Source: Obrimoposthia wandeli (Eukaryota). From it: a stretch of DNA of 64,000 bases. The notes under the pieces are model-generated. The model saw only the letters and a program-made list of their open reading frames with translations, did not search any database and had not been told where the DNA came from. The translations under genes and the position numbers were made by a program. The stretch covers positions 124,001 through 188,000 of the forward strand of contig CDROCS010001822.1 of the NCBI GenBank assembly GCA_977020255.1. The letters run 5' to 3'. Shown in pieces: positions 17,992 to 38,737 of the stretch (positions are counted from its first letter, which is position 1; every line of letters begins with the position of its first letter).

Positions 17992-18687
17992 ATGGCTCAC
18001 CAAGGAGCTCCACCAGATATTAATGCAGGAAATAATGTAGGTGAAATGAATGCCGAGCAGTTGGCACAAGCTTTAAATGCGACGTTGAGACCCAATTTTT
18101 CAGGATCATTGCAGATTACAAAGTTTAAAGGAGATGAGGAAAGTATTTGTGACTTCCTCGCAGAATATTCGAGTTGTGCAGATGTTCAAGGATGGAACGA
18201 TAAAGAAAAATGTGTCAGAGTACAGGCACATTTAACCGGATTAGCACTTGAAGTGTATAAACATTTGACAGAAGCAGAACGCATAGATTGGCCAACGTTG
18301 GAAAATGCTTTTATTGGAAAATTGGTATTAGGAGACTTAGCCAAAGTAAATAAGCGACTCATGAGAGAACGGAAACAGAAACATGATGAAGGCGTGAACG
18401 AATACGCGTATGTTTTGAGAACCTTGGCCGCAAGAGCGTACCCAAGAAGAATAATGAGAAATCAGGACGGTAATCCTGTAGCTCCAGAAGCACAAGCAGC
18501 GGAAAATGACCGGAACCAAAATGAAATGGCAGAGGTTTTGTTAGATATATTTAGAGGAGGATTGAAAAAGGATATTAAAGTGTTATTAGCAGTATCGGAT
18601 ACAAACGATTTTGATAACGCCGTACGAAAGGCGAGAGAGATTGAGAAAAATATAAAAATAATGCAGCATTGGCAATTTACGCAATGA
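17992..18687 (+). CDS. gag: Gag capsid portion; the frame is open from 17605 without an ATG; probably continuous with the large ORF
   Basis: ITKFKGDEESICDFLAEY...GWND...LTGLALEVY...WPTLENAF...QKHDEGVNEYAYVLRTLAARAYP...IFRGGL is a typical Ty3/gypsy capsid. Confidence 0.88.
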   Translation: MAHQGAPPDINAGNNVGEMNAEQLAQALNATLRPNFSGSLQITKFKGDEESICDFLAEYSSCADVQGWNDKEKCVRVQAHLTGLALEVYKHLTEAERIDWPTLENAFIGKLVLGDLAKVNKRLMRERKQKHDEGVNEYAYVLRTLAARAYPRRIMRNQDGNPVAPEAQAAENDRNQNEMAEVLLDIFRGGLKKDIKVLLAVSDTNDFDNAVRKAREIEKNIKIMQHWQFTQ

Positions 18688-21600: not shown

Positions 21601-24600
21601 ATGACTGTAGCATACCAAAGATGGGACAAAAGTATTCACTGCTTGACAGCGAAGACTGTCCAGAGTCACAGCCGTCAAAATTAGAAGTTAAAGGTGTTGA
21701 AAACTACTTTGTGTATCAGGATGTTGATAAAGTACAAGTAGAAGTGAAAGAATGTTCAATCCATTCAAGTTATCACGAATTCTATTGTGGCCATAGAAGT
21801 TTTATGTCAGAAATTACACCTACCACACCGTACAAGGCACATAAGGTTTTGCCGAGAGATTGCGAAGACGCATTTCGAACGGGAACAATAGAGGTAGACA
21901 AGAATTACAAACCTGATGTAAAAATTGGAGTGAGACGATACGAAACAGTCACGAGAGTCGGACAACGATGGGCTGATGGATCTTGTAACGGAGGAACAAA
22001 AAACGTACGTGGAACCAAAGTAACTGCGTTAGTAATGGACGTAACTTACAAAATCGAATTAAAAACATGGACCGCCAATTTTGATAAAAAGACACAACTA
22101 ATGATGACGTATCCAGAATGTAAAATGACAGATACATCTTGTTTTACAGGCGAATCCACAATTGTGTATCAAGTGAATCCGAAGCAATGCTCTTTAGTAT
22201 TTTTGAAAGAGATTAGTTTTAATAAAATAAAAGGATTCCTGTATAATAGAGATGGAGAAGGATTCCTGTATAATAAAGTTGGAAAAGGATTGCTCAATGA
22301 AACAAGACCAATCCCAATGACAAAAACACCTACACTGTTAATGGCAACATCAATAGAAGAAGGATTGATATTTATTAAAAAGAGAAACAAGACGCGATGC
22401 GGAATGACTGTTAGTACTACAAACTATCCAGGAATAGTTTTGTCCAAAGAAGCAATAGCATTGGCAGAAACCAAGCTAAAACCAAAAAATATGCAGCTAC
22501 ACACGTATTTTAGTAATAAAATTGATTTCTATTATCATAAAGGATTGATGCAAATGGAACAGTTATATCGAATGATGATCGAAAGAGATTGCCAGCTAAA
22601 CAAAGAGATCGTAAGAACAAAGTTAGCATTAGCTATTACGAATCCAGACATGGTAGCACCATTATTACCCTTGGATGAAGGAGTATTTGCTAAAACCATG
22701 GGAGAAGTATTGTATACTTACAAGTGTAATAAAGTAGAAGTACAGTTGAGAACAACAAACCGATGTACGAGTGAATTGGCAGTAACGTATAATTTAAAAG
22801 ATCTTTTTGTTGAACCAATCACGAGAATGATACTTCCAAAAGACACTCCAACTAAAGAAATCAGCTGCTCTAATATAATGGCACCTGAATATCAGATGAC
22901 GAATGATTTATGGATAACGTTACCTGATCGAAAGCCAACGAAAACCCCAGCGATGATAAGAATGACGAATCTTAAAGGTAAAATGAAATTCCAAGCGGTG
23001 GAAAATATGGAGAACGCAGGATTGTACAATGAAAAAGATTTAAAAGCGGCGTGGAACGAAATAATGTTTCCAGTAAAAAGAGCCAGAGTACTTACGGAGA
23101 TGGTACATCGAGCATTACCGCCAGGAGCGAGATATGCGAATTTCGATATGTTATTATCGCCAAGTCATTTCAAGGAAGCAGCACATCAGACACTTAGAAA
23201 GATGTGGGGGAAATTCCTTGTTTTAGGACAATTATTTTCGGGTATCATAGGTATTTATGTTATAATTAAATTTGTGCAGGTAATTATAGCCCAGGTGTTG
23301 TCTACGTATAGTTTATACAGGATAACCGGAATCACCTGGCAACTTATAATTGGATGTTTTCCATTTTTAGCAAAATATCTAATGCACCATCATCACGAGA
23401 ACGAGTTGCGAGCCCTCAAGAAGGAACAACACCAAACGAGAACCATGATGCGAGAACCAAGAAACTATCGAGACGACAACGACGACGATAATGATAGTCC
23501 AGGAGTATATGCAAAGATACCCGGAAAACCAAAGATTCCGTTACCAGACAAGGAAGAAGTGGCGTTAAACCTATATCCAATGAAGGAACTAAAGGAGGAG
23601 AAGGAAAAGTTCAAGAGAGGCATCTTAATGATAAGATGGCCTAAAGTGAGCTACAGTGAGATTCCACAAGCAGAGGAAAAAGACAAAAAAGATAATTCCA
23701 GAAGAATTCTGAAGTCTAGGATATCAAATGAGAATCCAAATGCTCCACCACAAGTAGCAGTAACATTAAACGGAAGAGAATATCTTGCCGAAGTTGATAC
23801 CGGATCTGCAGTATCAGTACTGAGTAAAGAAATCTTGTCATCAAAAGAATTAAGAGAAGTATGTCCTAGAAAACAGACATTTGTTAACGTGAATGGTACA
23901 GATGTAGTGTCGGAAGGAACACTGAAATGTTCGTTGAATATCGATGGAAGAGCATTGCAGTTAAATGCTAGAATATTCACAGATTGCGGTAGTCCAGTCA
24001 TGATTTGGATGGACGTAATACGAATGTTTGAAGGAATAATTATACTACCAAACAACAAGAGTTATAAGAATGACAGTTCAGTGAGAGAGATAAAAATGTT
24101 GAGAGGACCTATAGTCGAAAAGGAAAAATACACTACGTTCCGTATGGGAAATTCGTACCAAGACAAAAAACAGGAAGCGCTAGTAAAGTCGATACTTCAC
24201 TACAAAAACGTAAACCTCGGACCACAAGAGATGACGAGGAGAAAAATAACATATGTGAATCTGTCAGAAAGGGATCCCATGAGATTCGAGAGAAAGAGAC
24301 GAAATATATTAGAACTGTACTATTCAAAAGAAATGGCACGTAAAATGGCAAGATCAGGTTTAGAAATGTTAAATGCGACAAGCAGTTATGGTCATGAGAT
24401 AGTAGTACGATGCGTATGGTGTAGAGTAAAGTTTAGAGAGTGGGAAAAGAATGAAAACCCAATGAGACGTCATAAAAGAGATGCACCAAATTGTCCATTT
24501 CTTTTAAAACTGAAAACTTCAAACGTACCAGAAATCCAAACGGGAAAAGTACCCGATTTCGATTACAGTGACGGGATTCCAAAAGGAGAATCAGCTCTAA

Positions 24601-27600
24601 TAACAGGTAGAGTAATAACAAATAGCCGAATTGAAGATATATTCGAAGTTATGCGAGAAGTGAACGAATGTGACGAACAGTATCGAGAAGTAACTTTCGA
24701 AGACCCAAGACTTAAAAAATTGGCAAAAAAGGGACTTTTTGCTATAAAAAAGGATGGTAAAGACGTAATTAAATGCCACAAGTGTAAAAAAGAACGAATT
24801 ATCGACAGATATACTCTTGAGCTACCTAATAAAATTTTACATCATGAATTTTGCGAGTTTGGTATGTTAAAAAACAAAATAAAGCAAAAAGAACAGAAAA
24901 CCGAATGTATAATCGAATACCAAATCACACGAAAAGAGATTTTGGCTCAACAAGACACACCAGTAGTGTCATTCGTGAGAAGGTTATATCCAAAAGAAGC
25001 AGAAAGAATCAGAGAATTGGTAGAATTAAAAATAAAAACTACGCGAAACGGATACGGATCGATTTTTGAATTACTGCGAGATAAAGATGACAGTACAATT
25101 GAAACAAAAGAGAAAGAGTACATAAATGAACTAGAATACGTACTAGAAGATCCGGAATGCGCAGTTTGCATGGTCAACAAAATAGAAGTTGCCTTTCTAC
25201 CATGCGGACATGTAAGAACATGTCGGAGATGTGCGAATGAAATGGTATCATGTCCGATTTGTCGAAGAATAATAGATCGACAAGTGAGAAACATTAGATT
25301 TCACTATCCAAACATAGGAAGTGGACTGACAGAGTGTAATAATTCGATAAATACAATATACCATATGGGAAACATAAATGGAGCACAGCGACCAGCAGCT
25401 ATCATTAGAGTAAATAATTTAAGAGTAAAAGCCTTAATTGATACAGGTGCTGTAGCTTCGATAGTAAGTGAAGACTGTTTGACAGAGGAACAGAAACGAA
25501 CAATGGCAGAACCAGATGAATTCTTGGTATCGGTCAATGGAGACCCTGTAAAAGTGACGGGAATATTACCATGTACATTTATAATTGGACGTAATACGAT
25601 CACTATACCAGTTAGAATCATGAAAGAATGTCCTGAACCTACAATTTTAGGAATGGATGTACTATCACAACTTAAAGGGATAAGTATTGATTTACAAGAT
25701 CCAAGATTGAAGGATAGCACATCAAACAGACAAATAAACCAAATTGATGTAATTATAGAGAATCCTATAAAAATCGGTAAAAGATCACAATTTCTCATTC
25801 AAGGTCACACATTATCAGAAGATAAAGGACCAGTTGTGTTCGAACCATCACGAGATTTCATAGAGAAATACGAATTACCAGTTGTGAGTACAGTATGCCT
25901 GATCGAAAACCACAAAATACCAGTTAGACTGATGAATACAACCAACAATGACATTCTATTATACAGAGGAATGAGGTTGGGAAAGATAGCACAGATGGAG
26001 AATCCCACCGTGTGTGCTACGAAACTCGATAAAGATACGAATGATTACGAAGAAATAGTAATCCAATCAGAAAGACTGACAACTAGAGAAAAGAAACAAT
26101 TACTTGATCTAATACATAAATTTCCGAAAGTAATTGCAAAAAATCCATATGACATAGGAGAAACACCTGTCATAAAACATACAATACCACTGACAGAAGA
26201 CAAAGTAGTCAGAAGAAGACCATATCGAGTACCATTACAATTACAAGATGAAGTAAAAAGTCAGATTGAAGATATGTCTAAAACAGGAGTAATTAGACCG
26301 AGTTTTTCGCCATTCTCAGCACCTGTGGTGTTGGTAAAAAAGAAGGATGGGAAAATGAGATTCTGTATAGATTTCAGAGAACTGAACAAGATCACAAGAA
26401 AAGATGTGTATCCATTACCTAGAATCGAAGAGATGCTCGATAAATTGGGTAATTCAGATTATTTTACGACATTAGATTTGCAGAGTGGATACTGGCAAAT
26501 CGAGATAGAGGAAGAGGACAAACACAAAACAGCCTTTTCCTGCGGAGATGGACTGTACGAATGCGAAAAGATGCCATTCGGACTGACAGGAGCTCCAGCA
26601 ACATTTCAGCGTTGCATGAATTTTGTACTCGCATCGTGTGCAAACACGATGGTTTATATTGATGACATAATAATATTTTCGAAAACGTTCGAAGAACATT
26701 TAAAAAATCTTGAAGTTGTATTTAAAAGACTGGAAAACGCTAAATTAAAAGTTAAACCTACAAAATGCGAATGGGCTAAAGAGCGAGTAACATTTTTAGG
26801 ACATATAGTATCGAAAGAAGGCATTCGTCCTGATCCGGCAAAGATCGAGAAAGTAAAAGCGCATTTAGCGCCAAAGACTGTTAAGGAGATACAGAGTTTT
26901 TTAGGTCTTGCGAATTATTACAGACGATTTGTTGAACATTTTTCAGATATAGCAACACCATTGAGAAAGTTGACGAGGAAAGATGAGAAGTTCATATGGG
27001 GAGAAGAAGCCCAACAAGCATTCGAGCATTTAAAAGAAAGACTGATAAAAGAACCAATATTAGCGTTTCCAGATATAAACCGACAATTCATACTCATGAC
27101 AGATGCAAGTAACTATGCTGTAGGAGCAGTATTGGGACAAGAGGATGACGAAGGAAGAGAACACGTCATCGCGTATGCGAGTAGAGGATTAAACAGAGCC
27201 GAAAGAGGATACTCTGTTATCGAAAAGGAATGTCTAGCCATAGTGTATTCATGTAGACAGTACAGACACTACTTGCTAGGACAAAAAGTATTCCTGTATA
27301 CAGATCACAAACCACTACAGTTCTTATATAAACATAGAGATGAGATGAGTAGATTAAACAGATGGTTTCTAAAATTGGCCGAATTCGATCTAGAAATCCG
27401 TTATAGAACCGGAAAGTCGAATGGCAACGCAGATTGTTTATCGAGATTGACAAATGTAGATGAAAAAGGAAACATAATTCCAGAGGAAAAACAAGATGAA
27501 ACCAATGACCAAAAAGGAGAAGCAAATCTACTGACGATTTTGCTAAAGACGGTTAAAATAGACAAAGAGATCATCAAAGAACAGAAAGAAGATGAAGAAC

Positions 27601-30600
27601 TGAGTCTAATCAAAGAATTGTTGGTGAAAGGAGATCTAAACGATGAAATGACGAAAAAATACTCGATAAAAGAAGGAATCTTGTATATTGTCAATAATGT
27701 CGGAAAGATAGTAGTAGTAATTCCGAAGTCATTGAAAACAGCAGTGATGATCCAGTATCACGACGGAACACTAGGAGGACATCTGTCAGGGCGAAAGACA
27801 ATAGCCAGAATCAAAGAGAAGTACCATTGGGATGGTATGGAAGACGACATAAAACAATGGTGTAAACAATGTAAAGTATGTTTAACCAGAAAAGACACTG
27901 GAACTCGTACTAAAGTTCCACTGAAACCAATGCCAGTTCCCTTGGCACCAATGGAATTCATAGCGATGGATATATTGGGACCATTGAGAGAATCAAGTAA
28001 AGGAAACAAGTACGTCATAGTATTTACGGATTACATGACGAGATGGGTAGAAGCATATCCCATGCAAAACCAGAAGGCTGAAACAATAGCACAAATCTTA
28101 GTGGAAGAGATAATATTTCGATACGGAGTGCCTAGAAAGTTGTTAACGGATCAAGGTAAGAACTTCACTGGAGAAGTCATAAAAGCAGTATCGAAGATAT
28201 TCGGAATCATGAAGTTACAAACTTCACCATATCACCCACAGACAGATGGTCTGGTAGAAAGGTTTAATAAAACTTTATGTATGATGGTACAATCCTATTG
28301 CTCCGACAAGCAAGAGGATTGGGATAAATATTTACCTTCATGTTTATATGCTTACAGGAATTCAGTTCGAGAGGCGACGGGTCACACACCATTCTATCTG
28401 ATGTATCTCAGACAGAACAATATGCCGATGGATCTGGAGTGGACCGAGCCAACATCTCAGTATCTAGAAACTGAACAATACATTGTCGTCATGAAGGAAA
28501 GATTACAAGATGCTTGGACCAAAGCCGGATTGAAGTTGAAATTCAATCAAGAAGGTTACAAGGAACAATACGACAAAAAAGCAAAACCACATGAATTTAG
28601 AGTCGGAGATCAAGTGATGATATTTTATCCAGTCATCGAACCAGGTCTATTGTTTAAACTTCATAGACCATACAAAGGACCATACAAGGTGATCCAGACA
28701 ACCTCAACAAATTTGAAAGTAATCAACGAAGAGAATCGGAACAAGGAACCGATGATTGTACATGCAAATCGATGCAAATTAGTACCAAATAAAGATAATG
28801 CGTCACGATATGAGTTAAGATCACAGAAATCGAAATCGAATACCAATACCATTAAACTTACACGAATGGTAAGTGATCGGAACTACATAAACATGATGAC
28901 GAGTGGTAGCGAGAAAAAACCAGCGAGAATTGGTATGCTCAGAATGAAGTACCAAGAGGAAAAGGAAGTAATCCGACACATCGCACCACAAGAGATATTA
29001 GAAGAAGACGAAGAGATAATAGTCGTTTTCGAAAAAACACAACCCACAGATGTGGCTAAAGAAGTCATTGTGAAAGATGCACTGACAAACGAATTTCTGT
29101 GCGAACTTAGAGTGTCATACTACGACGGAAATACATTAGTCGCAGCACTATATCAAAACTCCAATGTGTTTACGACTGAGAAAGTGCTAATCGAAATCAC
29201 ATTGACACCAAACATAGTTGCATGGCAGAACTATGACAGTACTGAAGCAGGACTAGCCAGTCAGGAAGAGAAGGAACCGGCCGGTGGTCACATACTGCAT
29301 GGTACACCAAAAAGACTTAAACAAGAATACCCCGATGTAATAATGGTATTACGTAATTCACATGGGAAAAGAGATATCATGAGAGTCCATTTAATCGACG
29401 CTGATACTGAAAAGATAATTTGTCAGATGGATACTAAATACTTTGATGGAAAGACAATTGTATGTTGTATACCAGAATCTCACCGGTTAGACACAGATCA
29501 AACGGAAGTATCTGTAAGGTTGAGCGTAATAGAAGGATTCCATTCGCCAACCCATCCGGAAGTGACTAACAATAAAATCATCAAAGCAACGGCAGAGTTA
29601 CGCATTGACAGCGGATACCGGAAGTGGGAAGCTAAAAATAAAAAACCACAAAGAATCAATATGATCCGAGAACAAGTGACCAACTCAATCCAGCCAAAAT
29701 ATCATGCTGAAATAGTATCATCCGCGCCAAGTGTGATCACATCGATAAACGACGAAATTATAATTTTACTAAAAAATCGATGGCCGTCATCAACTGAGAT
29801 ACGAGTAAACTTAATTAATTATGCGAAGACACCGATATCTAAGCTGAATGTTACCTATTTCGATGGATTGTCCATCATGGGTAAATTAGAAACAATTGTC
29901 ATGTGCTATGGAGCACAGTTCCAAGTTGAGATACTTAAAGATAGTGTAATACCGTATCCGATTCACAAATACGAAGGGAAAATCAATCCAATTATTCTAA
30001 CCCCTTCATTAATTTCAGTTCAGACAGACATACCAGAATACCCTTCGAGCGAGTCTAGTGAAGACAGCGAACCAGAAAGTAACGATACAGAATCAACAGA
30101 ATCCGAAGATAACATAATAGAGCGATTCGGAAGAACCATGGAGGTTGAATTCGCTAAAGAGAGCAGAAAAAGACAAAACATAGAATTCGTGAAACAGAAT
30201 ATACAAGAAAGACGAATTAAATCTGCAGAAGAGACCGAGTCGGAAGAAGACTCAACAAAGGAACAGACATCAGAGACAAAGATGAATATCTCTCCAGCAA
30301 TACGAATGCTGAGAGGAAAGAAACTGGCGAAACTATCCAACATCGACGAACAAATAGAGAAGAGATTAGAAAGACTAAAACTTGAAGAGTCAGAATTAAT
30401 GCCACCAATGAGTGAGATCATAACAGGTAAGTTATACCTCGGAAATGTGGAGGATGCAACAGATGAAAAGAAACTGTTGGAACAAGGGATAACATACGTG
30501 ATCAACGTTACAATGAATCACAAATCGCAATATCAGACGATCAGAGCTATGACATTAAGAGTAAAAGACTCAATGGACGCTAATCTTCTCGAATGGTTTG

Positions 30601-33600
30601 TAGAAACAAACGAAATACTTCACAGAGAACTCCGGAACCAAGGAAAAGTGTTGGTACATTGTCAGAAAGGAATTTCTCGATCAGCAACTCTAGTATTAGC
30701 ATACCTAATAAAGACTAGACGAATGCAGGTACTAGAAGCGCTAAAATACCTACAGGAGAGAAGAAGTATTGCAAACCCAAATCTTAATTTTTTGGGACAG
30801 TTGGCAAATTACCAACTTCTGTTGCAAGAACAAAGACGGATGGACAACATTCCTGAGGATCCAAAGGAAAAGAATTTCCTCCAAGCATTATCATTGACCG
30901 GGTTATTCTTAGCCGGAGTCGACAAAATTACACAGATAATGCCAAAAGTATTTTTATGTCATCCAGGAGATATAGATACTGCTGGATTAAAGTTCCACAG
31001 TATCAACCGAGTAATCAACATTGTTGAAGTAGGAAACGAGATAATTAGTCTGTGTCAAAATACTGAAGATGACACCACTCGATACATACATGCTTCCAAT
31101 CGAGAAATAAACGATGCACAACAACATCTGACGAAATTGACTCAAACCATCCAAGCTGAAGTCACAGAAGGAAACGGCGTTCTGATATATCAGAAAAAAG
31201 GTACAATGTTAGCGCCTACCATAGGTGTATCCTTGTTGGTAGAGTACCATGGTCACACGCCAGAAGAAGCGATGGTCTACATCAAACAGAATAGACCAAA
31301 TACGGAATTCAAACCGTTACTCGTTCGAGAAATAGAGAAATACACCGAAAAGAGGAAGCAACAACGAGAAACAAATGAAGCTACAACAACAGTGCCCAGC
31401 TTTCAATACCAAAGATTGTTAGCAATAGGCTTGTTAAGTTGTCTAATGCCGATAACGGGAGCACAAGAAATAGGCTCCAACCACGGAAATAGTTCCTGGT
31501 TCAACGAAATCCACAACTACACCATACAGTACCATACGCCGGCACTGATGATGCTATTAGTGTTGTTAGGACTAATTGATGTGTGGATCATCCGAAAATG
31601 TCTTCGATCCATGAGAACCGACAGTAAAAGATTTCAGTTTGTAAAGATGAAAAGACCAAATGGACCAACGAACAAAGTGCTTGTGTATCTAGACGAAAGG
31701 ATCGAGGACAACATAGTAAATGAAGCGATATTTTACCCACAAAACAGAATACTGAATCAATTCCGAATAGATTACGAAGCTGACCGACAGCGCACACTTG
31801 ACCGAATATCAACAACATTCGCCGGATGCAAGCGAAGAAAACGAGTTGTAAAGGAAATACAAAAAGATGCTGATACAAAAGGACCAACGTATATATTCGA
31901 CGGCGATGTCATCAAAACACGTGAGTATGGAAGTAAGAGAGTGATAATTGAAACGATGGAAGGACATAAAACATGCTTCGGAAAGTTGACGATACAAGGT
32001 AACCCGGTACAGTTAATTATCGGAAAAAATGGAATCGAGGAGATGTCAAAACAACGACAGATAACAAAACGATCTAATCAGAAACAGATATCTCTCAAAC
32101 GATTGATAATTAAAACCCTTTGCAAAAGGTCAGTCAAGGCCCTGTGCACCGTTGCACAAGGATTGATTTATGGAGTAGTAATTGGATTGGTACTGCAAGC
32201 CATGCCAACCAGTAAAGCCGAATTGATGACACTATCCGAATATAATTTACATTTGAGAAATCTAGACAACACCCTAGAAATAATCAAGACATCCCACAGT
32301 AAAGCCGTGATGATCATGTGTGTAAAAGGATGTCCAGGACGAATGTGTATAGTCCCAGCGACCGAAATGATAACACTTAATGGACATTATGGAATTAGTG
32401 TTGTCACATGTGAAGACTACATATTTGGACAAACTAAAATAGTACTTCTCAGTGACATGTCCAACCAAAGTGCACACAAATTTAAAATATTAACCATCAA
32501 GAGTAAAGGAATACCAGCAGTACGTTACGGTATTCTAGAATTGGTTAATCCAATACTTGCACTGATCATTGGACTCATAATATTAATATTACTCATCTTG
32601 TTTTGTTGTACAAAGATAGAGTTGAGATCAAAAAAGAAGCGTCATGATCTCGCAAGACGAACAGGTCAAATGAACTTACAAAAATTCAACACAATTATAC
32701 CAAGACCACCATTTCTAGATGAACCAGCACCGGAGTACCAGCCAACGATATATGAACATATCGAGGAAAGACCGTACTATATGAGTAATTTGACTTGTTT
32801 CATTGAAGTTCCTGAGTTTAGGAATCGAACGATCATAGGAATCATGCTGATCATACAAATCACCACTACCAAGGCTAGTTATGAGATCATGATCAGTAAA
32901 TGGAGACAAGACGTAATACGGGCAGTATACATAGAAATCGCCCTTCTAAAAACAAATCACGTAGTAGACATTCATCTACAGACGTCAGCAACTGACAATA
33001 TCGATCAGAAATTGTATGTCATCCGACAGGTCAGAATAAAAATCGACCAAAGTACACCCGATTACAATTTAATATTATTATATCATGAAAGAGTGTTATA
33101 CCTACGGATAACAATATCAAAGAGGAAGCGGATTATCCAAAGTATCCGAACAAAGTCATTAATATTGCCTAGAGATGAGCGCATCTGGAAAATTGTCGAC
33201 AGGATTATGATCACAGGTAGACGACGTAAAGCCGTATGGAATTCCGTTAGGATATTTTTCAGATTGCTAGAAACCGACAGAGTAACAGTAATGTGTCCCA
33301 ACTCAGATGGCGGAATCAGATTCGAAATCCAAAGCCAAATGTTAGTACCACATTTTAACACAGAATGTCTGTGTAATCGAATTTCCAGTAATACTACAGA
33401 GACCTCGACCATAATCATGATAATAACAGGTGAAATATTCTACATAACTCTAAGATACCAGAACCGTCGATTTCGTAGATCCGGTATAAGTATCAAACCC
33501 AGGAAAATCATTCCCAAAAGACCAATCCTAGTCAAAAAGAAGGCAAAGGTAATCGAAAGTAAACGCCATTCCAAAAAACCGACAGTGATCAGAACAAAGA

Positions 33601-33899
33601 CAGAAGCGAAAGAAAAAGAGCTCAATTCCAGAAACCAAAGTACAATTATTAAGAGGACAAGAGTGAGGGGAACGATCCCACTAGATCCCAAACATCATTT
33701 CCAATCCAAAATAATAATACCTGTTCCATCAGAAACAAAACACCCAAATCCAAGAATTTTTAGAAAATCGGACATAATACATGGAAATCGATCAAAACCC
33801 ATGGAAATGTCATTCGAACCGACAAACAACAAAATGAAGTATGATTATAAATCATCAGACAACGGAATAACAGCGGTCAATGCTCTAATGTTCTATTGA
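18669..33899 (+). CDS. pol: 5,076-aa Gag(NC)-accessory-Env-Pol-accessory polyprotein; the frame opens at 18645
   Basis: Uninterrupted 15.2-kb ORF with the CCHC, protease, RT (YIDD), RNase H and integrase motifs plus the cargo domains listed separately. Confidence 0.96.
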   Translation: MAIYAMTAGDDDKTKVFVNKTEPSNFQNRNYGQNKFEKVDESSNGNRDNFRSRNRDDSRGRNNSESWNRNRDDSRGRNNNDSWNRNRDDSRNRFNRDNSGNRQPWRGDDRNYNANRGERSDSRFGNNTGNSDGRFNNRGSGFESNFRRNYFRGRYDNRQNSRRVQFEDEQNKIDIRGRIMCYTCKQMGHYSRDCTRSKEFGTNRFGNNNFGNNNFGNNYRGYNSPPPWNRGGGYTPQPWRPNNQYTDRQQSPGRYNNYADRQQGAERYNNYVGQQGAERYNNSGRYNNNNVDKTNSRESSPKPKGNFSYVSDDSDRNRETELRREIDFEDSDSKFERMLGIIKDSPHTKMANSSTLSKQEKSLHSREDMNDLMNKILEAYETPIEKTCNAQPMIEHVEAARNATSMENVKKIISEAKETLNQPLDETSEAPEVLAKLQTIKVHRLEEVRAELVKHSHDNLDYKEVPRGLLKGYGRYVQRSNQKGTMKISLRLISGQIIHEKLNVYQTMKTIRKKLAEKLEIDGMNMLFHYKGRSLDDEDVPVECGYPIGNELEEKIDVITVGRQELVDNEGLTEILNSALEMIKTPIEILDSSSESGDNDVAEAWNKTSTPEPYVAELQDMNLENELTTPVVEVPPEPDIIQIRQDEVTDTANQVRQNETVTQLVGEDEVSEIVDLDSPIWHAAYRDRQAEQMMRQNEEIGHEEGPSHEIQYNGEPYDPGENQTEYQYFRRGPGRPRKGESILRNVLTAPQTDEERHLSIGQLAASLEQYSAERNEDIRGDMNSETPSSKDILTGILRQVKPKLFKMYRDETTDITDNLTKAVRSQMSAVKRMTANHVYHASIDRFYDGEVLARLCGNQTTNKKLITAITYLCFQLTERTSQPHEVKQGINEAMYLIENVLQRRIDENGGWAKLSDYAKTILEMNEDDDEQCHENRQKENKQYRPKERNNQPNMSTTMMMMMLVMFMGMQQASGLIAYDCSIPKMGQKYSLLDSEDCPESQPSKLEVKGVENYFVYQDVDKVQVEVKECSIHSSYHEFYCGHRSFMSEITPTTPYKAHKVLPRDCEDAFRTGTIEVDKNYKPDVKIGVRRYETVTRVGQRWADGSCNGGTKNVRGTKVTALVMDVTYKIELKTWTANFDKKTQLMMTYPECKMTDTSCFTGESTIVYQVNPKQCSLVFLKEISFNKIKGFLYNRDGEGFLYNKVGKGLLNETRPIPMTKTPTLLMATSIEEGLIFIKKRNKTRCGMTVSTTNYPGIVLSKEAIALAETKLKPKNMQLHTYFSNKIDFYYHKGLMQMEQLYRMMIERDCQLNKEIVRTKLALAITNPDMVAPLLPLDEGVFAKTMGEVLYTYKCNKVEVQLRTTNRCTSELAVTYNLKDLFVEPITRMILPKDTPTKEISCSNIMAPEYQMTNDLWITLPDRKPTKTPAMIRMTNLKGKMKFQAVENMENAGLYNEKDLKAAWNEIMFPVKRARVLTEMVHRALPPGARYANFDMLLSPSHFKEAAHQTLRKMWGKFLVLGQLFSGIIGIYVIIKFVQVIIAQVLSTYSLYRITGITWQLIIGCFPFLAKYLMHHHHENELRALKKEQHQTRTMMREPRNYRDDNDDDNDSPGVYAKIPGKPKIPLPDKEEVALNLYPMKELKEEKEKFKRGILMIRWPKVSYSEIPQAEEKDKKDNSRRILKSRISNENPNAPPQVAVTLNGREYLAEVDTGSAVSVLSKEILSSKELREVCPRKQTFVNVNGTDVVSEGTLKCSLNIDGRALQLNARIFTDCGSPVMIWMDVIRMFEGIIILPNNKSYKNDSSVREIKMLRGPIVEKEKYTTFRMGNSYQDKKQEALVKSILHYKNVNLGPQEMTRRKITYVNLSERDPMRFERKRRNILELYYSKEMARKMARSGLEMLNATSSYGHEIVVRCVWCRVKFREWEKNENPMRRHKRDAPNCPFLLKLKTSNVPEIQTGKVPDFDYSDGIPKGESALITGRVITNSRIEDIFEVMREVNECDEQYREVTFEDPRLKKLAKKGLFAIKKDGKDVIKCHKCKKERIIDRYTLELPNKILHHEFCEFGMLKNKIKQKEQKTECIIEYQITRKEILAQQDTPVVSFVRRLYPKEAERIRELVELKIKTTRNGYGSIFELLRDKDDSTIETKEKEYINELEYVLEDPECAVCMVNKIEVAFLPCGHVRTCRRCANEMVSCPICRRIIDRQVRNIRFHYPNIGSGLTECNNSINTIYHMGNINGAQRPAAIIRVNNLRVKALIDTGAVASIVSEDCLTEEQKRTMAEPDEFLVSVNGDPVKVTGILPCTFIIGRNTITIPVRIMKECPEPTILGMDVLSQLKGISIDLQDPRLKDSTSNRQINQIDVIIENPIKIGKRSQFLIQGHTLSEDKGPVVFEPSRDFIEKYELPVVSTVCLIENHKIPVRLMNTTNNDILLYRGMRLGKIAQMENPTVCATKLDKDTNDYEEIVIQSERLTTREKKQLLDLIHKFPKVIAKNPYDIGETPVIKHTIPLTEDKVVRRRPYRVPLQLQDEVKSQIEDMSKTGVIRPSFSPFSAPVVLVKKKDGKMRFCIDFRELNKITRKDVYPLPRIEEMLDKLGNSDYFTTLDLQSGYWQIEIEEEDKHKTAFSCGDGLYECEKMPFGLTGAPATFQRCMNFVLASCANTMVYIDDIIIFSKTFEEHLKNLEVVFKRLENAKLKVKPTKCEWAKERVTFLGHIVSKEGIRPDPAKIEKVKAHLAPKTVKEIQSFLGLANYYRRFVEHFSDIATPLRKLTRKDEKFIWGEEAQQAFEHLKERLIKEPILAFPDINRQFILMTDASNYAVGAVLGQEDDEGREHVIAYASRGLNRAERGYSVIEKECLAIVYSCRQYRHYLLGQKVFLYTDHKPLQFLYKHRDEMSRLNRWFLKLAEFDLEIRYRTGKSNGNADCLSRLTNVDEKGNIIPEEKQDETNDQKGEANLLTILLKTVKIDKEIIKEQKEDEELSLIKELLVKGDLNDEMTKKYSIKEGILYIVNNVGKIVVVIPKSLKTAVMIQYHDGTLGGHLSGRKTIARIKEKYHWDGMEDDIKQWCKQCKVCLTRKDTGTRTKVPLKPMPVPLAPMEFIAMDILGPLRESSKGNKYVIVFTDYMTRWVEAYPMQNQKAETIAQILVEEIIFRYGVPRKLLTDQGKNFTGEVIKAVSKIFGIMKLQTSPYHPQTDGLVERFNKTLCMMVQSYCSDKQEDWDKYLPSCLYAYRNSVREATGHTPFYLMYLRQNNMPMDLEWTEPTSQYLETEQYIVVMKERLQDAWTKAGLKLKFNQEGYKEQYDKKAKPHEFRVGDQVMIFYPVIEPGLLFKLHRPYKGPYKVIQTTSTNLKVINEENRNKEPMIVHANRCKLVPNKDNASRYELRSQKSKSNTNTIKLTRMVSDRNYINMMTSGSEKKPARIGMLRMKYQEEKEVIRHIAPQEILEEDEEIIVVFEKTQPTDVAKEVIVKDALTNEFLCELRVSYYDGNTLVAALYQNSNVFTTEKVLIEITLTPNIVAWQNYDSTEAGLASQEEKEPAGGHILHGTPKRLKQEYPDVIMVLRNSHGKRDIMRVHLIDADTEKIICQMDTKYFDGKTIVCCIPESHRLDTDQTEVSVRLSVIEGFHSPTHPEVTNNKIIKATAELRIDSGYRKWEAKNKKPQRINMIREQVTNSIQPKYHAEIVSSAPSVITSINDEIIILLKNRWPSSTEIRVNLINYAKTPISKLNVTYFDGLSIMGKLETIVMCYGAQFQVEILKDSVIPYPIHKYEGKINPIILTPSLISVQTDIPEYPSSESSEDSEPESNDTESTESEDNIIERFGRTMEVEFAKESRKRQNIEFVKQNIQERRIKSAEETESEEDSTKEQTSETKMNISPAIRMLRGKKLAKLSNIDEQIEKRLERLKLEESELMPPMSEIITGKLYLGNVEDATDEKKLLEQGITYVINVTMNHKSQYQTIRAMTLRVKDSMDANLLEWFVETNEILHRELRNQGKVLVHCQKGISRSATLVLAYLIKTRRMQVLEALKYLQERRSIANPNLNFLGQLANYQLLLQEQRRMDNIPEDPKEKNFLQALSLTGLFLAGVDKITQIMPKVFLCHPGDIDTAGLKFHSINRVINIVEVGNEIISLCQNTEDDTTRYIHASNREINDAQQHLTKLTQTIQAEVTEGNGVLIYQKKGTMLAPTIGVSLLVEYHGHTPEEAMVYIKQNRPNTEFKPLLVREIEKYTEKRKQQRETNEATTTVPSFQYQRLLAIGLLSCLMPITGAQEIGSNHGNSSWFNEIHNYTIQYHTPALMMLLVLLGLIDVWIIRKCLRSMRTDSKRFQFVKMKRPNGPTNKVLVYLDERIEDNIVNEAIFYPQNRILNQFRIDYEADRQRTLDRISTTFAGCKRRKRVVKEIQKDADTKGPTYIFDGDVIKTREYGSKRVIIETMEGHKTCFGKLTIQGNPVQLIIGKNGIEEMSKQRQITKRSNQKQISLKRLIIKTLCKRSVKALCTVAQGLIYGVVIGLVLQAMPTSKAELMTLSEYNLHLRNLDNTLEIIKTSHSKAVMIMCVKGCPGRMCIVPATEMITLNGHYGISVVTCEDYIFGQTKIVLLSDMSNQSAHKFKILTIKSKGIPAVRYGILELVNPILALIIGLIILILLILFCCTKIELRSKKKRHDLARRTGQMNLQKFNTIIPRPPFLDEPAPEYQPTIYEHIEERPYYMSNLTCFIEVPEFRNRTIIGIMLIIQITTTKASYEIMISKWRQDVIRAVYIEIALLKTNHVVDIHLQTSATDNIDQKLYVIRQVRIKIDQSTPDYNLILLYHERVLYLRITISKRKRIIQSIRTKSLILPRDERIWKIVDRIMITGRRRKAVWNSVRIFFRLLETDRVTVMCPNSDGGIRFEIQSQMLVPHFNTECLCNRISSNTTETSTIIMIITGEIFYITLRYQNRRFRRSGISIKPRKIIPKRPILVKKKAKVIESKRHSKKPTVIRTKTEAKEKELNSRNQSTIIKRTRVRGTIPLDPKHHFQSKIIIPVPSETKHPNPRIFRKSDIIHGNRSKPMEMSFEPTNNKMKYDYKSSDNGITAVNALMFY
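19209..19250 (+). other. CCHC zinc knuckle (nucleocapsid)
   Basis: CYTCKQMGHYSRDC within an R/N/D/G-rich region. Confidence 0.95.
20124..20354 (+). other. Ubiquitin/SUMO-like domain in polyprotein
   Basis: MKISLRLISGQIIHEKLNVYQTMKTIRKKLAEKLEIDGMNMLFHYKGRSLDDED follows the beta-grasp pattern; no C-terminal GG. Confidence 0.7.
21030..21440 (+). other. Bcl-2-like helical domain (divergent)
   Basis: BH2-like RRIDENGGWAKLSDY; the BH1-equivalent helix TTNKKLITAITYLCFQL lacks NWGR. Confidence 0.55.
21528..23384 (+). other. env: Internal signal peptide plus chuvirus-type viral envelope glycoprotein with C-terminal membrane segments
   Basis: MSTTMMMMMLVMFMGMQQASG|LIAYDC...YSLLDSEDC; Cys-rich ectodomain with N-glycosylation sequons; KIDFYYHK...CQL; GEVLYTYKC; W-GKFLVLGQLFSGIIGIYVIIKF...YSLYRITGITW. 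This matches the recalled pattern of chuvirus-like glycoproteins. Confidence 0.78.
23745..24047 (+). other. Aspartic protease copy 1 (DTG intact, ILG motif altered to MIW)
   Basis: AEVDTGSAVSVLS at 23796; PVMIWMDVI at ~24000. Confidence 0.88.
24279..24506 (+). other. BIR domain (canonical CX2C-X16-H-X6-C)
   Basis: MARSGL...VRCVWCRVKFREWEKNENPMRRHKRDAPNCPFL. Confidence 0.92.
24687..24863 (+). other. Second, degenerate BIR-like domain
   Basis: LAKKGLF...DVIKCHKCKKE...HHEFCEF. Confidence 0.6.
25158..25290 (+). other. IAP-type C3HC4 RING finger
   Basis: CAVCMVNKIEVAFLPCGHVRTCRRCANEMVSCPICRRII. Confidence 0.93.
25389..25700 (+). other. Aspartic protease copy 2 (canonical)
   Basis: KALIDTGAVASIVS at 25440; PTILGMDVL at 25644. 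Confidence 0.93.
25755..25990 (+). other. dUTPase-like remnant between protease and RT
   Basis: IPVRLMNTTNNDILLYRGMRLGKI resembles the dUTPase-fold C-terminal strands found in many animal gypsy elements. Confidence 0.45.
26151..26813 (+). other. Reverse transcriptase core
   Basis: SPFSAPVVLVKKKDG, RFCIDFRELN, LDLQSGYWQ, MPFGLTGAPATFQR, YIDD (26655). Confidence 0.98.
27087..27449 (+). other. RNase H
   Basis: TDASNYAVGAVL, YSVIEKECLAIV, TDHKPL, NADCLSR. Confidence 0.96.
27720..28823 (+). other. Integrase (HHCC, DDE core, GPY/F module)
   Basis: YHDGTLGGH...CKQCKVC; MDILGP; TDQG; DGLVERFN; GPYKV; ends RYELRS. Confidence 0.96.
28947..29942 (+). other. Three ~85-aa beta-rich repeats, Ig/IPT(TIG)-like
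   Basis: Shared pattern I..xP..I....E(V/I)I(I/V)xL.N......V.L.......I..L...Y(Y/F)DG.T(L/I): SYYDGNTLV, KYFDGKTIV, TYFDGLSIM. Confidence 0.55.
30408..30830 (+). other. Dual-specificity protein phosphatase, catalytically intact
   Basis: LYLGN, VINVT, VKDS, VLVHCQKGISRSATLVLAYL (HCX5R at 30657), NPNLNFLGQL. Confidence 0.94.
30924..31343 (+). other. Second dual-specificity-phosphatase fold lacking catalytic residues (pseudophosphatase)
   Basis: ITQIMPKVFL...INRVINI...GVLIYQKKGTMLAPT...EEAMVYIKQNRP; HCX5R is replaced by YQKKGTML. Confidence 0.75.
31413..32765 (+). other. Membrane-protein region with alternating signal-like and transmembrane segments
   Basis: Hydrophobic stretches at 31413-31463, 31539-31592, 32139-32219 and 32532-32609; a small Cys-containing ectodomain; tail PAPEYQPTIYEHI. 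Confidence 0.6.
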
Positions 33900-34153
33900 C
33901 AATCGTGTGCGTGAAAGGCAGTCAAGTATGCCCAAGAATACGACGAAAATGCGAAGGATTGCGATGCTGTGACACACCCACCATGGAGGAAGTGGAATTA
34001 GACTTACCTCCGCCTCCCATCAAGATATGATAAGTCAGAGGAGGTTGTAGATAAATTAGTGTGTGAAATATGTAGAAATATCTAGAAGCGATTGTACAAA
34101 TAGTAGAAATATATAAAACTCATGTAGAAATTAATCATCATCATGTATTTAGA

Positions 34154-34513: not shown

Positions 34514-34819
34514 ATGTCTGGAGAATGTTCCATCTGCTACGAGAGCATCATGGACTTCTACACCAAGCCCAACAACTGCGACCACCTCTTCCACGTCGAA
34601 TGCCTCGAGACGTGGATCCCCATCGCCAACAGCAACAATCCCCTCGACTTCCCAACCTGCCCGATGTGTAGAGCGACCTTCTCAGTACACTACGTGTACA
34701 ACCAGGACAGCCTCCAAGCAGTGGTACCCATAGTACACTGCTGGAAAACCATCTGCGATTGCTGGTGCTCGTTCTGCGTGGAGGAGCGAAGCACAGGCCA
34801 GCCCAATTCCCAACAATAA
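34514..34819 (+). CDS. RING-H2 accessory gene 2 (101 aa, putative E3 ligase)
   Basis: CSIC...CDHLFHVECLETW...CPMC, followed by the extra Cys cluster HCWKTICDCWCSFC. Confidence 0.88.
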   Translation: MSGECSICYESIMDFYTKPNNCDHLFHVECLETWIPIANSNNPLDFPTCPMCRATFSVHYVYNQDSLQAVVPIVHCWKTICDCWCSFCVEERSTGQPNSQQ

Positions 34820-35158: not shown

Positions 35159-35656
35159 ATGAAGTGTACCGTCTGCCTCGAGAAAATTTGGACGGCATCG
35201 GCATCCCCTGTCGGCTGCCGTCACAAATTCCACGAATCATGCCTATATACTTGGGCCCGACTTCGACCCGAAGGACACGTAAATTGTCCATTGTGCCGTA
35301 CTCCCTTCGCGGAATGGACACTGCAGTGTCGAGGGCGCCACAAGGGCACCCATTCGCTCACCAGCTGTATTGGTGGCGAGCACTGCCATTGCCCCAATTG
35401 TATCGCGCGCCGTCGCGATGCAAAACTCGCTCTCCGCGAGAAATATCGGTCAACTCGCGACCCCCGCTCATGGCAGCGTGGCCGTCAAATATGGCTCGAG
35501 AATCGCGGAGTACACGGGCGGTACACGACCATTTTTCACCCGAGCCAACATCTCACCATGCGCCAGCAGATGATACTGTACAATGGCGGCCCACCATCGT
35601 ATCCAGAACTACCACTGGAGCAGGTCTTGCTGTTCCTGAAGGACAGGAACGGTTGA
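35159..35656 (+). CDS. RING-H2 accessory gene 3 (165 aa, putative E3 ligase)
   Basis: CTVC...CRHKFHESCLYTW...CPLC, plus HCHCPNC; ATG directly follows TTTTCTTGTGCAG. Confidence 0.88.
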   Translation: MKCTVCLEKIWTASASPVGCRHKFHESCLYTWARLRPEGHVNCPLCRTPFAEWTLQCRGRHKGTHSLTSCIGGEHCHCPNCIARRRDAKLALREKYRSTRDPRSWQRGRQIWLENRGVHGRYTTIFHPSQHLTMRQQMILYNGGPPSYPELPLEQVLLFLKDRNG

Positions 35657-36478
35657 CATATCCCTGACAATCTTGTTGACAGATCCCTGACAATCACCCT
35701 TAATCTTTTCTTGTGTGTAAATTTTTAGTTGTGATAAGTAATAATGTATGGTTTGAGACTTGCTCCAAATTATACATTATGATTCCCACTAAAAACCGGG
35801 GTTTTGAAAAATTTTGTTTTGGGCATGTTTGATGAGTTGAATGATTGATTTTGTAGGGATGAACCTAAAATCAACAGCCAGAGGCTTGTATAAGTAAAAT
35901 CGATACGTTCCGGGGACGTAACTTTTTTGGAACCCCCGAGGTATGTTAGGTTTAAGAATTAAGAAATTAAAATAATTTAGTCGATTAAATACTAAAATAA
36001 AAATCCTTGAAAGCAAGGTTGAAAATTAAATTAAATATTAATTTTAGATTCAAAATTGAAATTAGTGGAAGTTAGGATAAAAATTAGGAGGACCACGAAG
36101 GTCGTGTATAGTGTAGGATATATAAGGTTAGATTAATTAACCCAAAAGTGCAACAAAAAGCACATAATTAAAGGAAAAGCAAAAGGAAACAATTGAGAAA
36201 ATCGAACGTCAATCAAGGTAAGCACTTTTTCGTGCAGTTAAATTGGAGTAACTAAATTATTTTTCAGCTGCCGCCAAAACTCCAGTTGAAACAGCTGTCG
36301 ACATTGCTGATTGACAGCCAGGAGTTGCAGAAATCGACTATAAAAGTCGTCGACCAAAAAACAAATAGACACGAAAGAAAAAATCAATATCCCAAATCTA
36401 CTGAAGGGAATCGACCACATATTGGTAAGTGAGATTTGGTGAAATTTGGATTAACTTATTGTAGATCACAAGTCTATT

Positions 36479-36975
36479 GCCAATATCGTTTGAAAGAAAT
36501 ATCGTTAAATATTGCCAATATCGTTTGAAAGAAATATCGTTAAATATTGCCAATATCGTTTGAAAGAAATATCGTTAAATATTGCCAATATCGTTTGAAA
36601 GAAATATCGTTAAATTTTGCCAATATCGTTTGAAAGAAATATCGCTAAATATTGCCAATATCGTTTGAAAGAAATATCGTTAAATTTTGCCAATATCGTT
36701 TGAAAGAAATATCGTTAAATATTGCCAATATCGTTTGAAAGAAATATCGTTAAATATTGCCAATATCGTTTGAAAGAAATATCGTTAAATTTTGCCAATA
36801 TCGTTTGAAAGAAATATCGCTAAATATTGCCAATATCGTTTGAAAGAAATATCGTTAAATTTTGCCAATATCGTTTGAAAGAAATATCGTTAAATATTGC
36901 CAATATCGTTTGAAAGAAATATCGTTAAATTTTGCCAATATCGTTTGAAAGAAATATCGCTAAATATTGCCAATA
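36479..36975 (+). repeat. 35-bp tandem repeat in 3' LTR, 14 full copies plus a partial
   Basis: Unit starts at 36479, 36514 ... 36934; partial at 36969. Confidence 0.97.
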
Positions 36976-37076
36976 CATTGTTAAAAGAAGCCGATCGTCG
37001 CAATATTCCCAAACTACCTACGGATCCTGTACCGGAATTTCAAGCAGCATATAGGTAAGAACACCGACTAAAGCAT

Positions 37077-37517
37077 TCATTGCCCCTAGTTGGCAATTAG
37101 GATACATTCATTGCCCCTTGTTGGTAATTCGAAATTGTAATATATTTTAACCATATTCATTGTCCCTAGCTGACAATTAGGATTGCTGTCTCTTTAACCA
37201 AATCATTGTCCCTAGTTGACAATTAGGATTGTCCATTTTATTCATTGTCCCCAGTTGACAATTAGGAATTGTACGAGTTTTTTCCCGTAAGATTCATTGT
37301 CCCTAGCTGACAATTCGGTTCACTCATTGTCCCTAGTTGACAATTCGGAACAAATACTCATTGTCCCTAGTTGACAATTCGGAACAAATACTCATTGTCC
37401 CTAGTTGACAATTCGGAACCAACACTCATTGTCCTAGTTGACAATTCGGAGTAAGTTTTCATTGTCATCGTTGACAATTAGGTTTTTAGGAGAATCATTG
37501 TCCACAGTGGACAATTC
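37077..37517 (+). repeat. Palindromic-unit array in 3' LTR
   Basis: Copy of 15624-16060. Confidence 0.9.
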
Positions 37518-38029
37518 GTGGTTAAATACACAACAGATAGAGTTACGGATTCAAGAAACTTTATCCACACATAAGAAGTTGAGTCGAAGAAATTTAAGAG
37601 GGTTGCGTTATAGATTAACCAACCTAGGAAGAAGAATAACCCTAAAATCTCGATCACCCGAACGTAAAATCGATACGTGGTTCATCCCCACTTCTTGTAG
37701 AGACTTACAGAAGTCTTAGGAATTTTACCATACTTTTTAGAGATACGTACATAAACGTATTGTTGTGTTTAGTTACGTGAATTACCAATAAACAATTTCC
37801 TACATTAGAACAAGTTGTTTTTGCACCCTTCAGAATAAGAGACATCGAATCAAATACCTTCAGATAGTACAAGAGATAGGCAACCATAACACTAAGTAGG
37901 CCACGACCAACTTTAAGACCTGCTTCTAATCGAACTCACGTTGGGGCCCTCCGCATTTCAGAGGATCTGTACCAAGTTTCGTATAGAAACCCCAACAATC
38001 TTATCTTCATCATAATTCAGCAACTAATC

Positions 38030-38737
38030 TTAGAATCACTTAAATATCATAAATGACATGGACATCTAGTTAATTTGTCTTTCAAACCACTTAATATCAC
38101 AAACCCATATACTTTGCATTTATTCCTTCTCTATCCTTATTCTAAATCAGCTAATATGATAAAAATCATACATACTTATTAATATCCTCTAAAAGTCTCT
38201 TTATAATCCTTCATTGTAATCATTCATCTTATCTTCATCATAATTCAGCAACTAATCTTCATTATCGCTATCCTTCATCTCATCAATGTATTCCTTCACA
38301 AACTAGATGTTTATGTCATTTATGATATTTAGATGATTCTAAAAGACTAATAATAAGTCTTTCTTAGAAGAAAATTATGAGATGTTCAGGAAAATTGTGA
38401 TGTTTTACGAGGAATATTACTAGTATATTATGTATTGATTCTTATTGAAATTGATTCATATATGTTCAGAAGGAGAAATTAACGATATGTTTATAGAATA
38501 GAATTCCCCGAGATGTGATATTTACTGATATTAAGATGGTTTAGAGGATATTTTAACGATTATTAAGAGACTTTTAGAGGATATTAATAAGTATGTATGA
38601 TTTTTATCATATTAGCTGATTTAGAATAAGGATAGAGAAGGAATAAATGCAAAGTATATGGGGTTTGTGATATTAAGTGGTTTGAAAGACAAATTAACTA
38701 GATGTCCATGTCATTTATGATATTTAAGTGATTCTAA
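38030..38737. repeat. Near-perfect ~179-bp inverted repeat (38030-38208 and 38558-38737)
   Basis: tagaatcacttaaatatcataaatgacatggacatctag... is the reverse complement of ...ctagatgtccatgtcatttatgatatttaagtgattcta; one mismatch seen. Confidence 0.92.

Follow-up and report, generated by a model that had tools for sequence, protein, structure and literature searches.

A stretch of 64,000 nucleotides of the Obrimoposthia wandeli genome (GenBank assembly GCA_977020255.1, contig CDROCS010001822.1, positions 124,001 to 188,000 of the forward strand; hereafter the window) harbors an intact Ty3/Gypsy long terminal repeat (LTR) element of 23.3 kb at 14666-37997 on the plus strand, which carries two dual-specificity phosphatase (DSP) domains. 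Coordinates are positions in this window, on the plus strand unless marked. The first domain, DSP1, retained a complete active site, and the second, DSP2, was a pseudophosphatase of the same fold. The reading preferred here, to which we give slightly less than an even chance on the sequence evidence, is that the element has captured a phosphatase of stress mitogen-activated protein kinases (MAPKs) that would counter apoptosis jointly with inhibitor-of-apoptosis (IAP) cargo, and that DSP2 would be a non-catalytic adaptor or spacer on the membrane side. The two domains were located as follows:

30408-30848, plus strand: DSP1, dual-specificity phosphatase domain (Pfam DSPc, 121.8 bits, E 2.3e-35)
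30912-31355, plus strand: DSP2, DSP-fold pseudophosphatase (DSPc, 29.6 bits, E 6.8e-7)

The DSP1 domain covered positions 1-131 of the 133 in the DSPc profile. Its P-loop, HCQKGISRS at 30657-30683, kept the HCX5RS pattern, and its general-acid Asp (D54) lay within VKDSMD at 30561-30578; the catalytic residues were all in place (Asp 30567, Cys 30660 and Arg 30678). The column of the general acid was invariant in one alignment and, in a comparison of 188 domains, was Asp in 68 of 68 domains resembling MAP kinase phosphatases (MKPs) and in 113 of 120 other DSP domains. A sequence-only reading, made earlier by a model from the letters of the window, had assigned this P-loop and the general acid to DSP1, and the profile match and residues bore it out. 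Judged from these residues, DSP1 is a working-looking signalling phosphatase.

The 13 best PDB sequence matches of DSP1 were DUSP10/MKP5 (90 bits), then DUSP4, DUSP1, DUSP2, DUSP16 and DUSP8. The best library matches were at most 47% identical, and those with names were animal DUSP10, DUSP4 or STYXL1; the 10 top-scoring ones comprised four in DUSP10/DUSP4 clusters, two STYXL1 and four without an informative name. Moreover, an MKP-type docking motif, LNFL, of the FXF type at the start of helix alpha5, was present at 30783-30794 (within PNLNFLGQL), and the pattern PN[LF]NF[LM]GQL was shared by DSP1 and 42 of the 68 MKP-like domains and occurred in none of the 120 others. Nesting of DSP1 inside the MKP group was not rejected by the approximately unbiased (AU) test (p 0.41). 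No Pfam match to a rhodanese/KIM domain was found in the 500 aa upstream of DSP1. The accessible part of PMC4802042 describes this motif as the segment that docks the catalytic domains of MKP7 and MKP5 on JNK1 without the KIM domain, with Leu449 of MKP5 equivalent to Phe285 of MKP7; deletion of the kinase-binding domain of MKP5 barely changed JNK1 dephosphorylation and raised the Km for p38 280-fold, and the MKP7 catalytic domain alone reduced UV-induced apoptosis. Since DSP1 has the docking motif without a KIM domain, JNK rather than p38 would be its likeliest target.

The sequence-only reading had also likened the pair to viral and MAPK phosphatases. The likeness to MAPK phosphatases is strengthened by the MKP docking motif; that to poxvirus VH1, with STAT1 as target, is not, the best matches being cellular DUSPs. 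Poxvirus VH1/OH1 and baculovirus PTP/BVP are likewise virus-borne phosphatases of the DSP fold, but no poxviral or baculoviral enzyme occurred among the best 60 of the 77 PDB matches to DSP1, the lowest of these 60 scoring 42 bits.

Several observations weigh against a MAPK phosphatase. The motif columns contributed to the tree by which the MKP-like group was defined. The placement of DSP1 was unsupported in both large trees, and a careful tree of 56 of the 188 domains, hand-chosen without the tandem-domain and compositionally odd rows, put DSP1 just outside the MKP-like group, whose support was only 84/80. In a profile test of MKP-like versus other domains without the motif columns, which leans to the broader group for any divergent sequence, DSP1 scored -70, lower than all MKP-like domains (minimum -23) and within the spread of the others (median -104, maximum -32). 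Furthermore, DSP1 has Leu112 where Tyr435 of MKP5 and Tyr271 of MKP7 sit, and these tyrosines are needed for catalysis and MAPK binding according to the accessible part of PMC9676401. This column held Tyr or Phe in 63 of the 68 MKP-like rows and Leu in 4. The residues equivalent to MKP7 Lys275 and Ser282 are different in DSP1 as well, and the DSP1 P-loop has Lys where 61 of the 68 have Ala.

Such features would suit an active atypical DUSP with substrates other than MAPKs. These might be further proteins of host signalling, or the Gag, Env or integrase products of the element itself as particles mature, a role like that of poxvirus VH1 towards virion proteins. We regard this explanation as rather unlikely, though a serious alternative. 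The position outside the MKP group in the tree, the score of -70 without the motif, the lack of a KIM domain, the Leu at the MKP tyrosine and the P-loop Lys are all in its favor, as is the encoding of DSP1 in cis, within the polyprotein that also supplies structural proteins; against it, the MKP docking motif was kept in two lineages, those of the intact element and of a relic described below. Action of DSP1 on RNA 5' ends, of the DUSP11/PIR1 or baculovirus BVP type and hiding the element RNA from sensors, or on phosphoinositides at the membrane anchor appears to us the most improbable of the alternatives. An RNA element, the P-loop Lys and a probably membrane-tethered unit would agree with it, but no PIR1, BVP, PTEN or PTPMT1 chain occurred in the best 60 of 77 DSP1 matches, and the P-loop signature of RNA phosphatases differs from the P-loop of DSP1.

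In comparison with the catalytic domains of MKP5/DUSP10 and MKP7/DUSP16, DSP1 shares the fold, the catalytic triad, the HCQ start of the P-loop and the LNFL docking motif; it differs in the absent rhodanese/KIM domain, the Leu at Tyr435/Tyr271, the P-loop Lys, the lack of a placement within the MKP clade and its fusion to a pseudo-domain inside a retroelement polyprotein. DSP1 would have arisen from a cellular DUSP, probably from an MKP that lost its KIM domain. It is not classed here with the MKP family, but may work like an MKP catalytic domain.

The second domain, DSP2, matched positions 2-128 of the 133 in the DSPc profile with a score just below the curated cut-off of 33.5. A comparison by the alignment-free features of the ESM Atlas gave a first match of 0.95 with 191 of 256 features in common, and the 10 best family-bearing Atlas matches all belonged to the DSPc family or its clan. 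An AlphaFold model of DSP2 (pLDDT 81) resembled DUSP5 (Z 17.5, rmsd 2.5, 136 aligned) and MKP-4 (TM 0.79), and this model is not independent evidence of the fold because it was built on an alignment of 46 other DSP sequences. The same cellular-type alignment biases a comparison in which Orf OH1 (Z 13.4, rmsd 3.0, 136 aligned) and BVP (Z 11.8, rmsd 3.8, 137 aligned) scored below DUSP5, and a fold search among viral proteins, in which giant-virus DSPs came top, is alignment-biased as well and of no use for the origin of DSP2. The alignment-free fold model of the DSP pair reached a pLDDT of only 36, and a complex prediction of DSP1 with DSP2 without alignments scored 0.00. The segment YQKKGTML (31188-31211) aligned to the P-loop, and DSP2 carried Asn, Gln and Leu at the columns of the catalytic Asp, Cys and Arg. 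A DSP fold with YQKKGTML at the active site had been anticipated by the sequence-only reading; the profile and Atlas matches and the alignment-dependent model agree with it.

DSP2 has neither the general acid nor the nucleophile, and it has also lost the P-loop Arg, the subsequent Ser and the docking motif. The P-loop Arg was kept in 68 of 68 MKP-like and in 118 of 120 other compared domains, and its absence from DSP2 indicates that phosphate cannot be bound in the canonical way. Of the earlier proposal that the dead domain serves as a substrate trap or adaptor, the trap is therefore not supported, whereas DSP2 may be an adaptor. A phospho-substrate trap like STYX is very improbable, because the phosphate-binding Arg was lost together with the next Ser and the docking motif, although a DSP fold without its nucleophile is present and two loop lysines could form a basic patch. 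STYX-type pseudophosphatases retain the Gly, Ile, Ser and Arg of the P-loop (accessible part of PMC8269279). DSP2 resembles STYX and MK-STYX in having a DSP fold without the catalytic Cys, and differs from them in the loss of the P-loop Arg and Ser, which they keep, and of the general acid. The placement of DSP2 between DSP1 and a hydrophobic segment suggests instead that, in a product tethered to the membrane, it acts as a spacer, an adaptor or a regulator. These options for DSP2 are not exclusive of, and are compatible with, any of the options for DSP1.

With respect to its origin, DSP1 and DSP2 were 25% identical over 55 aa only, and the terminal branch of DSP2 measured 3.7 to 10 changes per column. 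A sister relation of DSP2 to DSP1 gave AU p 0.36 with a branch length of 10 (28 reference rows); the sequences do not reject an origin of DSP2 by duplication of DSP1, but they do not establish it either. In agaric fungi and Paramecium, cellular tandem DSPs (P0023, P0081, P0069 and P0014) are also composed of an active and then an inactive domain, but DSP2 scored above 5 bits against none of their second domains, so the active-plus-dead layout looks convergent. An origin in which a cellular tandem gene was taken up ready-made is unsupported, DSP2 being unlike the second domains of these four. Receptor protein tyrosine phosphatases (PTPs) are classical PTPs with an N-terminal membrane part. Their D1-D2 arrangement, as given in the accessible part of PMC8269279, is similar in that an active domain is followed by an inactive one.

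The same pair was recognized in a decayed copy on the minus strand of the window, together with a copy of the repeats that follow the integrase:

584-1437, minus strand: relic of a diverged element, decayed, with stop codons and shifts of frame; DSP1 at 1437-1049 is followed by DSP2 at 897-584
2666-2824, minus strand: post-integrase repeat as preserved in the relic (39% identity over 54 aa, E 3.3e-8)

The order of repeat, DSP1 and DSP2 in the relic was the same as in the intact element. The DSP1 part (1437-1049, minus strand) was matched in two pieces, 38% and 50% identical (E 1.6e-23), and the DSP2 part at 897-662 (minus strand) with E 2.9e-6, a score reached by none of 200 shuffles and none of 11 other real 3.2-kb tiles. 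In addition, a collinear DNA match of 342 nt (60%, E 2.5e-15) crossed the DSP1-DSP2 junction. The relic retained the Cys and Arg of DSP1 and NPNLNFL, and its DSP2 had no Cys at the nucleophile position. Differences between the window copy and the relic were distributed over the three codon positions as 145, 92 and 163 over 278 codons (p 4e-5). Six stops in the relic imply that at least about 0.13 substitutions per site followed insertion, compared with an observed difference of 0.48, so most of the divergence would have arisen between two coding lineages. On this evidence the relic represents a sister lineage that has diverged, and since this separate lineage has the same pair, the active-plus-dead pair is older than the split. 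The presence of the pair in the relic, claimed from the letters alone, was confirmed by these matches, and its long retention, claimed likewise, was supported by the codon-position skew and substitution estimates.

The constraint on DSP2 itself was less evident. For the DSP2 part alone, the codon-position skew against the relic was not significant (p 0.12). The domain was retained in two lineages, but its own constraint, given by this skew and by two of two differences that were synonymous, is weak. DSP2 might be a decayed duplicate without a function of its own, a tolerated spacer kept by the need for an open frame, which we consider improbable. The long terminal branch, the low identity to DSP1, the p of 0.12 and the downstream tail, which requires an open frame anyway, all accord with it, as does a sister relation to DSP1, which is not rejected (AU p 0.36) and not shown. 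It is opposed by the near-whole match to the fold profile and the Atlas value of 0.95, by the similar length kept in a lineage 48% different in DNA and also without the nucleophile, and by the two of two listed DSP2 differences that were synonymous. The latter came from the region 28400-33900, where 30 of the 40 best-supported differences (of 418) were synonymous against 29.6% expected (p 4e-9), including 6 of 8 in the DSP pair (4 of 6 in DSP1, 2 of 2 in DSP2).

The element in which the pair resides was composed of the following features:

14666-16540, plus strand: 5' LTR, TG...CA, with the 4-bp target-site duplication ATCT upstream (14662-14665)
17992-18687, plus strand: Gag capsid open reading frame (ORF), 231 aa (Retrotrans_gag E 0.0025), overlapping the polyprotein start (18684) by 4 nt
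18684-33899, plus strand: polyprotein ORF, 5071 aa, with Pfam domains
21609-23483, plus strand: chuvirus-type (Monjiviricetes) fusion glycoprotein (PF24664, E 3.8e-93), in frame, before pol
24330-25280, plus strand: BIR (24330-24503; PF00653, E 4.6e-9) and RING (25149-25280; PF13920, E 1.8e-11), IAP-like cargo
26253-28883, plus strand: reverse transcriptase (RT), RNase H and integrase of Ty3/Gypsy type (Pfam and PDB matches)
28944-29996, plus strand: three beta-rich-looking repeats, each of 92-100 aa, that have a YxDG motif in common; also in the relic
31416-31577, plus strand: two hydrophobic segments adjoining the 3' side of DSP2 (hydropathy peaks 31416-31472 and 31521-31577)
34514-34819 and 35159-35656, plus strand: two small RING-H2 ORFs upstream of the 3' LTR (zf-RING_2, E 6.6e-9 and 1.8e-8)
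35944-37997, plus strand: 3' LTR, then ATCT (37998-38001)

The two LTRs were 99.6% identical (8 mismatches in 1875 aligned bases and three length differences), and the insertion is young since the LTRs are near-identical and flanked by a 4-bp duplication. The element shows the Ty3/Gypsy order of protease, RT, RNase H and integrase, TG...CA LTRs and a short target duplication, and the best PDB matches of its RT were Ty3 RT (E 7e-82). The polyprotein comprised, in order, a Zn knuckle, a possible ubiquitin-like domain, a possible Bcl-2-like domain, the fusion glycoprotein, protease 1, BIR, RING, protease 2, RT, RNase H, integrase, the repeats, DSP1, DSP2 and a membrane tail. The BIR and RING domains therefore lie in the same ORF as the DSP pair. 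Before the envelope, the ubiquitin-like match was weak (E 0.012), as was the Bcl-2-like one (Bcl-2 E 0.047, vBcl-2 E 0.11), which the Atlas features did not support. The post-integrase repeats matched no Pfam or PDB family. Integrase homology with relatives of the element stopped near residue 3390-3407 of the polyprotein, and the DSP pair (residues 3909-4224) started about 520 aa beyond this end, after the three repeats and an acidic linker. A tandem following the integrase had been proposed from the sequence; the order is correct, but the pair does not follow directly and is part of the 5071-aa ORF, not a separate gene. The hydrophobic segments behind DSP2 may represent a signal-like stretch and then a likely membrane helix, a topology drawn from hydropathy. 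The whole polyprotein tail (31404-33896, 831 aa) contained four hydrophobic segments and had no Pfam match.

Among 45 RT-related loci, two (L001 and L002) were close, with 63-64% RT identity. They share with the element the envelope, whose fusion glycoprotein is 41-42% identical, the proteases and pol, including a conserved block between protease and RT that has no Pfam name, and their tails after the integrase differ. Neither L001 nor L002 had a BIR-RING match, and a DSP profile search found no match in any of the 45 loci, most of the other 43 being short or distant. The polyprotein frames of L001 and L002 were intact without any DSP, which makes a core role of DSP1 in particle maturation unlikely; the pair is therefore a lineage-specific, optional cargo. 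In their tails, L001 and L002 have different membrane proteins in place of the DSP pair, and ORFs for exonucleases of the RNase_T (DEDDh) type were present downstream (L001 10617-12107, L002 12085-13473).

The region 28400-33900 was matched by 149,015 to 176,141 contig records in three runs of one sample, a record depth that is no copy number, with 30 of 30 bins covered and the DSP bins covered like their neighbors; in a marine metagenome of another study, 24 of its 30 bins were covered. These data fit a very abundant element family in which the DSP pair is standard. Searches for other DSP-bearing elements, all in collections with few animal repeats, returned none with the polyprotein region 3905-4230 against long proteins (748 candidates), none with DSP2 against longer proteins (1145 candidates), none with DSP1 against longer proteins (43 matches in 468 candidates, cellular DUSPs where named) and none in metagenome and viral contigs. 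Of 200 protein matches, one (the catfish gene model P0194) contains an RT-like part as well, with 23% identity.

Further observations concern the architecture of the element and its surroundings. Beyond the polyprotein and ahead of the 3' LTR, the two separate RING-H2 ORFs constitute further ubiquitin-ligase cargo. The 4-nt overlap of the Gag ORF with the polyprotein, where L002 has an in-frame capsid, suggests a stop-restart or -1 shift that would set the Gag:polyprotein ratio. The aspartic protease is duplicated, with two copies here (23754-25688) and in L002 and three in L001, and variable cargo sits between the copies, here BIR-RING. A primer-binding-site-like sequence (16541-16567), which presumably resembles the complement of the elongator tRNA-Met end, begins 8 nt past the 5' LTR and does not adjoin it. 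Both LTRs contain 35-bp tandem arrays of different copy number (15197-15522 and 36475-36975), and the leader (16596-17541) contains 49-bp and shorter arrays. Elsewhere in the window, a partial LTR copy (45603-45943), 93% identical to the LTR 3' end, marks an older insertion of the same family, and a decayed RT fragment (8278-9270, plus strand), 27% identical and on the strand opposite to the relic, belongs to a different element. A 496-aa ORF (47469-48959; ANF_receptor E 6.9e-37) probably represents a single large exon from a receptor gene of the host, and a long inverted repeat and a 64-bp satellite array (38027-38740 and 43944-45266) lie to the right of the 3' LTR.

In the mechanism preferred here, cleavage at the signal-like stretch behind DSP2, together with cutting by an element protease upstream, would free a cytosolic DSP1-DSP2 unit, which may stay tethered to the endoplasmic reticulum via its C-terminal hydrophobic segment. 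DSP1 would dock a stress MAP kinase via LNFL and dephosphorylate its activation loop, JNK being likeliest because the catalytic domains of human MKP5 and MKP7 act on JNK without the KIM domain, which MKP5 needs for p38. In this manner DSP1 would damp stress-kinase signalling upstream of apoptosis, the BIR, RING and possible Bcl-2-like cargo would act further downstream, and expressing cells would survive; on the membrane side, DSP2 would be a folded spacer or adaptor, or would regulate DSP1, and would not be a trap. A Burro1 IAP reportedly shields planarian stem cells against apoptosis (Lee et al. 2026, via the accessible part of PMC13465017). A more specific version, in which a KIM-less, JNK-selective MKP of a retroelement, tethered to the membrane by its pseudophosphatase, completes an anti-death kit of JNK off-switch, IAP and Bcl-2-like protein within a young, highly abundant and envelope-bearing element of endogenous-virus character, is rather unlikely.

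Giant cargo-bearing Gypsy elements are already known. The accessible part of PMC6431247 describes the planarian Gypsy element Burro/GYPSM1 as having an ORF of about 5000 aa with a CCHC knuckle and ubiquitin-like, BCL2-like, BIR and RING domains, and a mononegaviral-type fusion glycoprotein in frame before the protease, with thousands of copies reported. The present element resembles Burro in the ORF of about 5000 aa, the CCHC knuckle, the in-frame mononegaviral-type envelope between the gag region and pol, the BIR and RING domains and the very high abundance of the family. It differs in that the capsid motif lies in a separate overlapping ORF and not at the N-terminus of the long ORF, in its length of 23 kb compared with more than 30 kb, and in that no MATH or ankyrin domain was found by the Pfam scan. 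Burro also has a dUTPase-like domain between protease and RT, where the present element has the unnamed conserved block, and no phosphatase or DSP is named in the accessible part of that description, in contrast to the DSP pair found here. Because the capsid is in a separate ORF and the likeness rests on layout, not on an RT tree, the element is termed Burro-like only. In the literature searched, no description of a DUSP or phosphatase as retroelement-borne cargo was found, and primary descriptions of Burro may list one; the word phosphatase was absent from the accessible parts of PMC8532177, PMC11410931 and PMC13465017 and had one unrelated use in that of PMC10175614, and the accessible parts of PMC10084718 and PMC12440569 have no bearing on such cargo.

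In conclusion, modules for apoptosis and ubiquitin are already part of Burro-like elements; with a phosphatase their cargo would reach beyond death effectors into kinase signalling, which points to a specific class of target. An LTR element would thereby have assembled a host-control kit like those of large DNA viruses by independent capture, and the ancient active-plus-dead pair would be a case of convergence on the D1-D2 layout. The variation of cargo between relatives offers a natural experiment on which cargo goes with high abundance. If the JNK-selective version is true, host stress and regeneration signalling would be rewired wherever the element is expressed.

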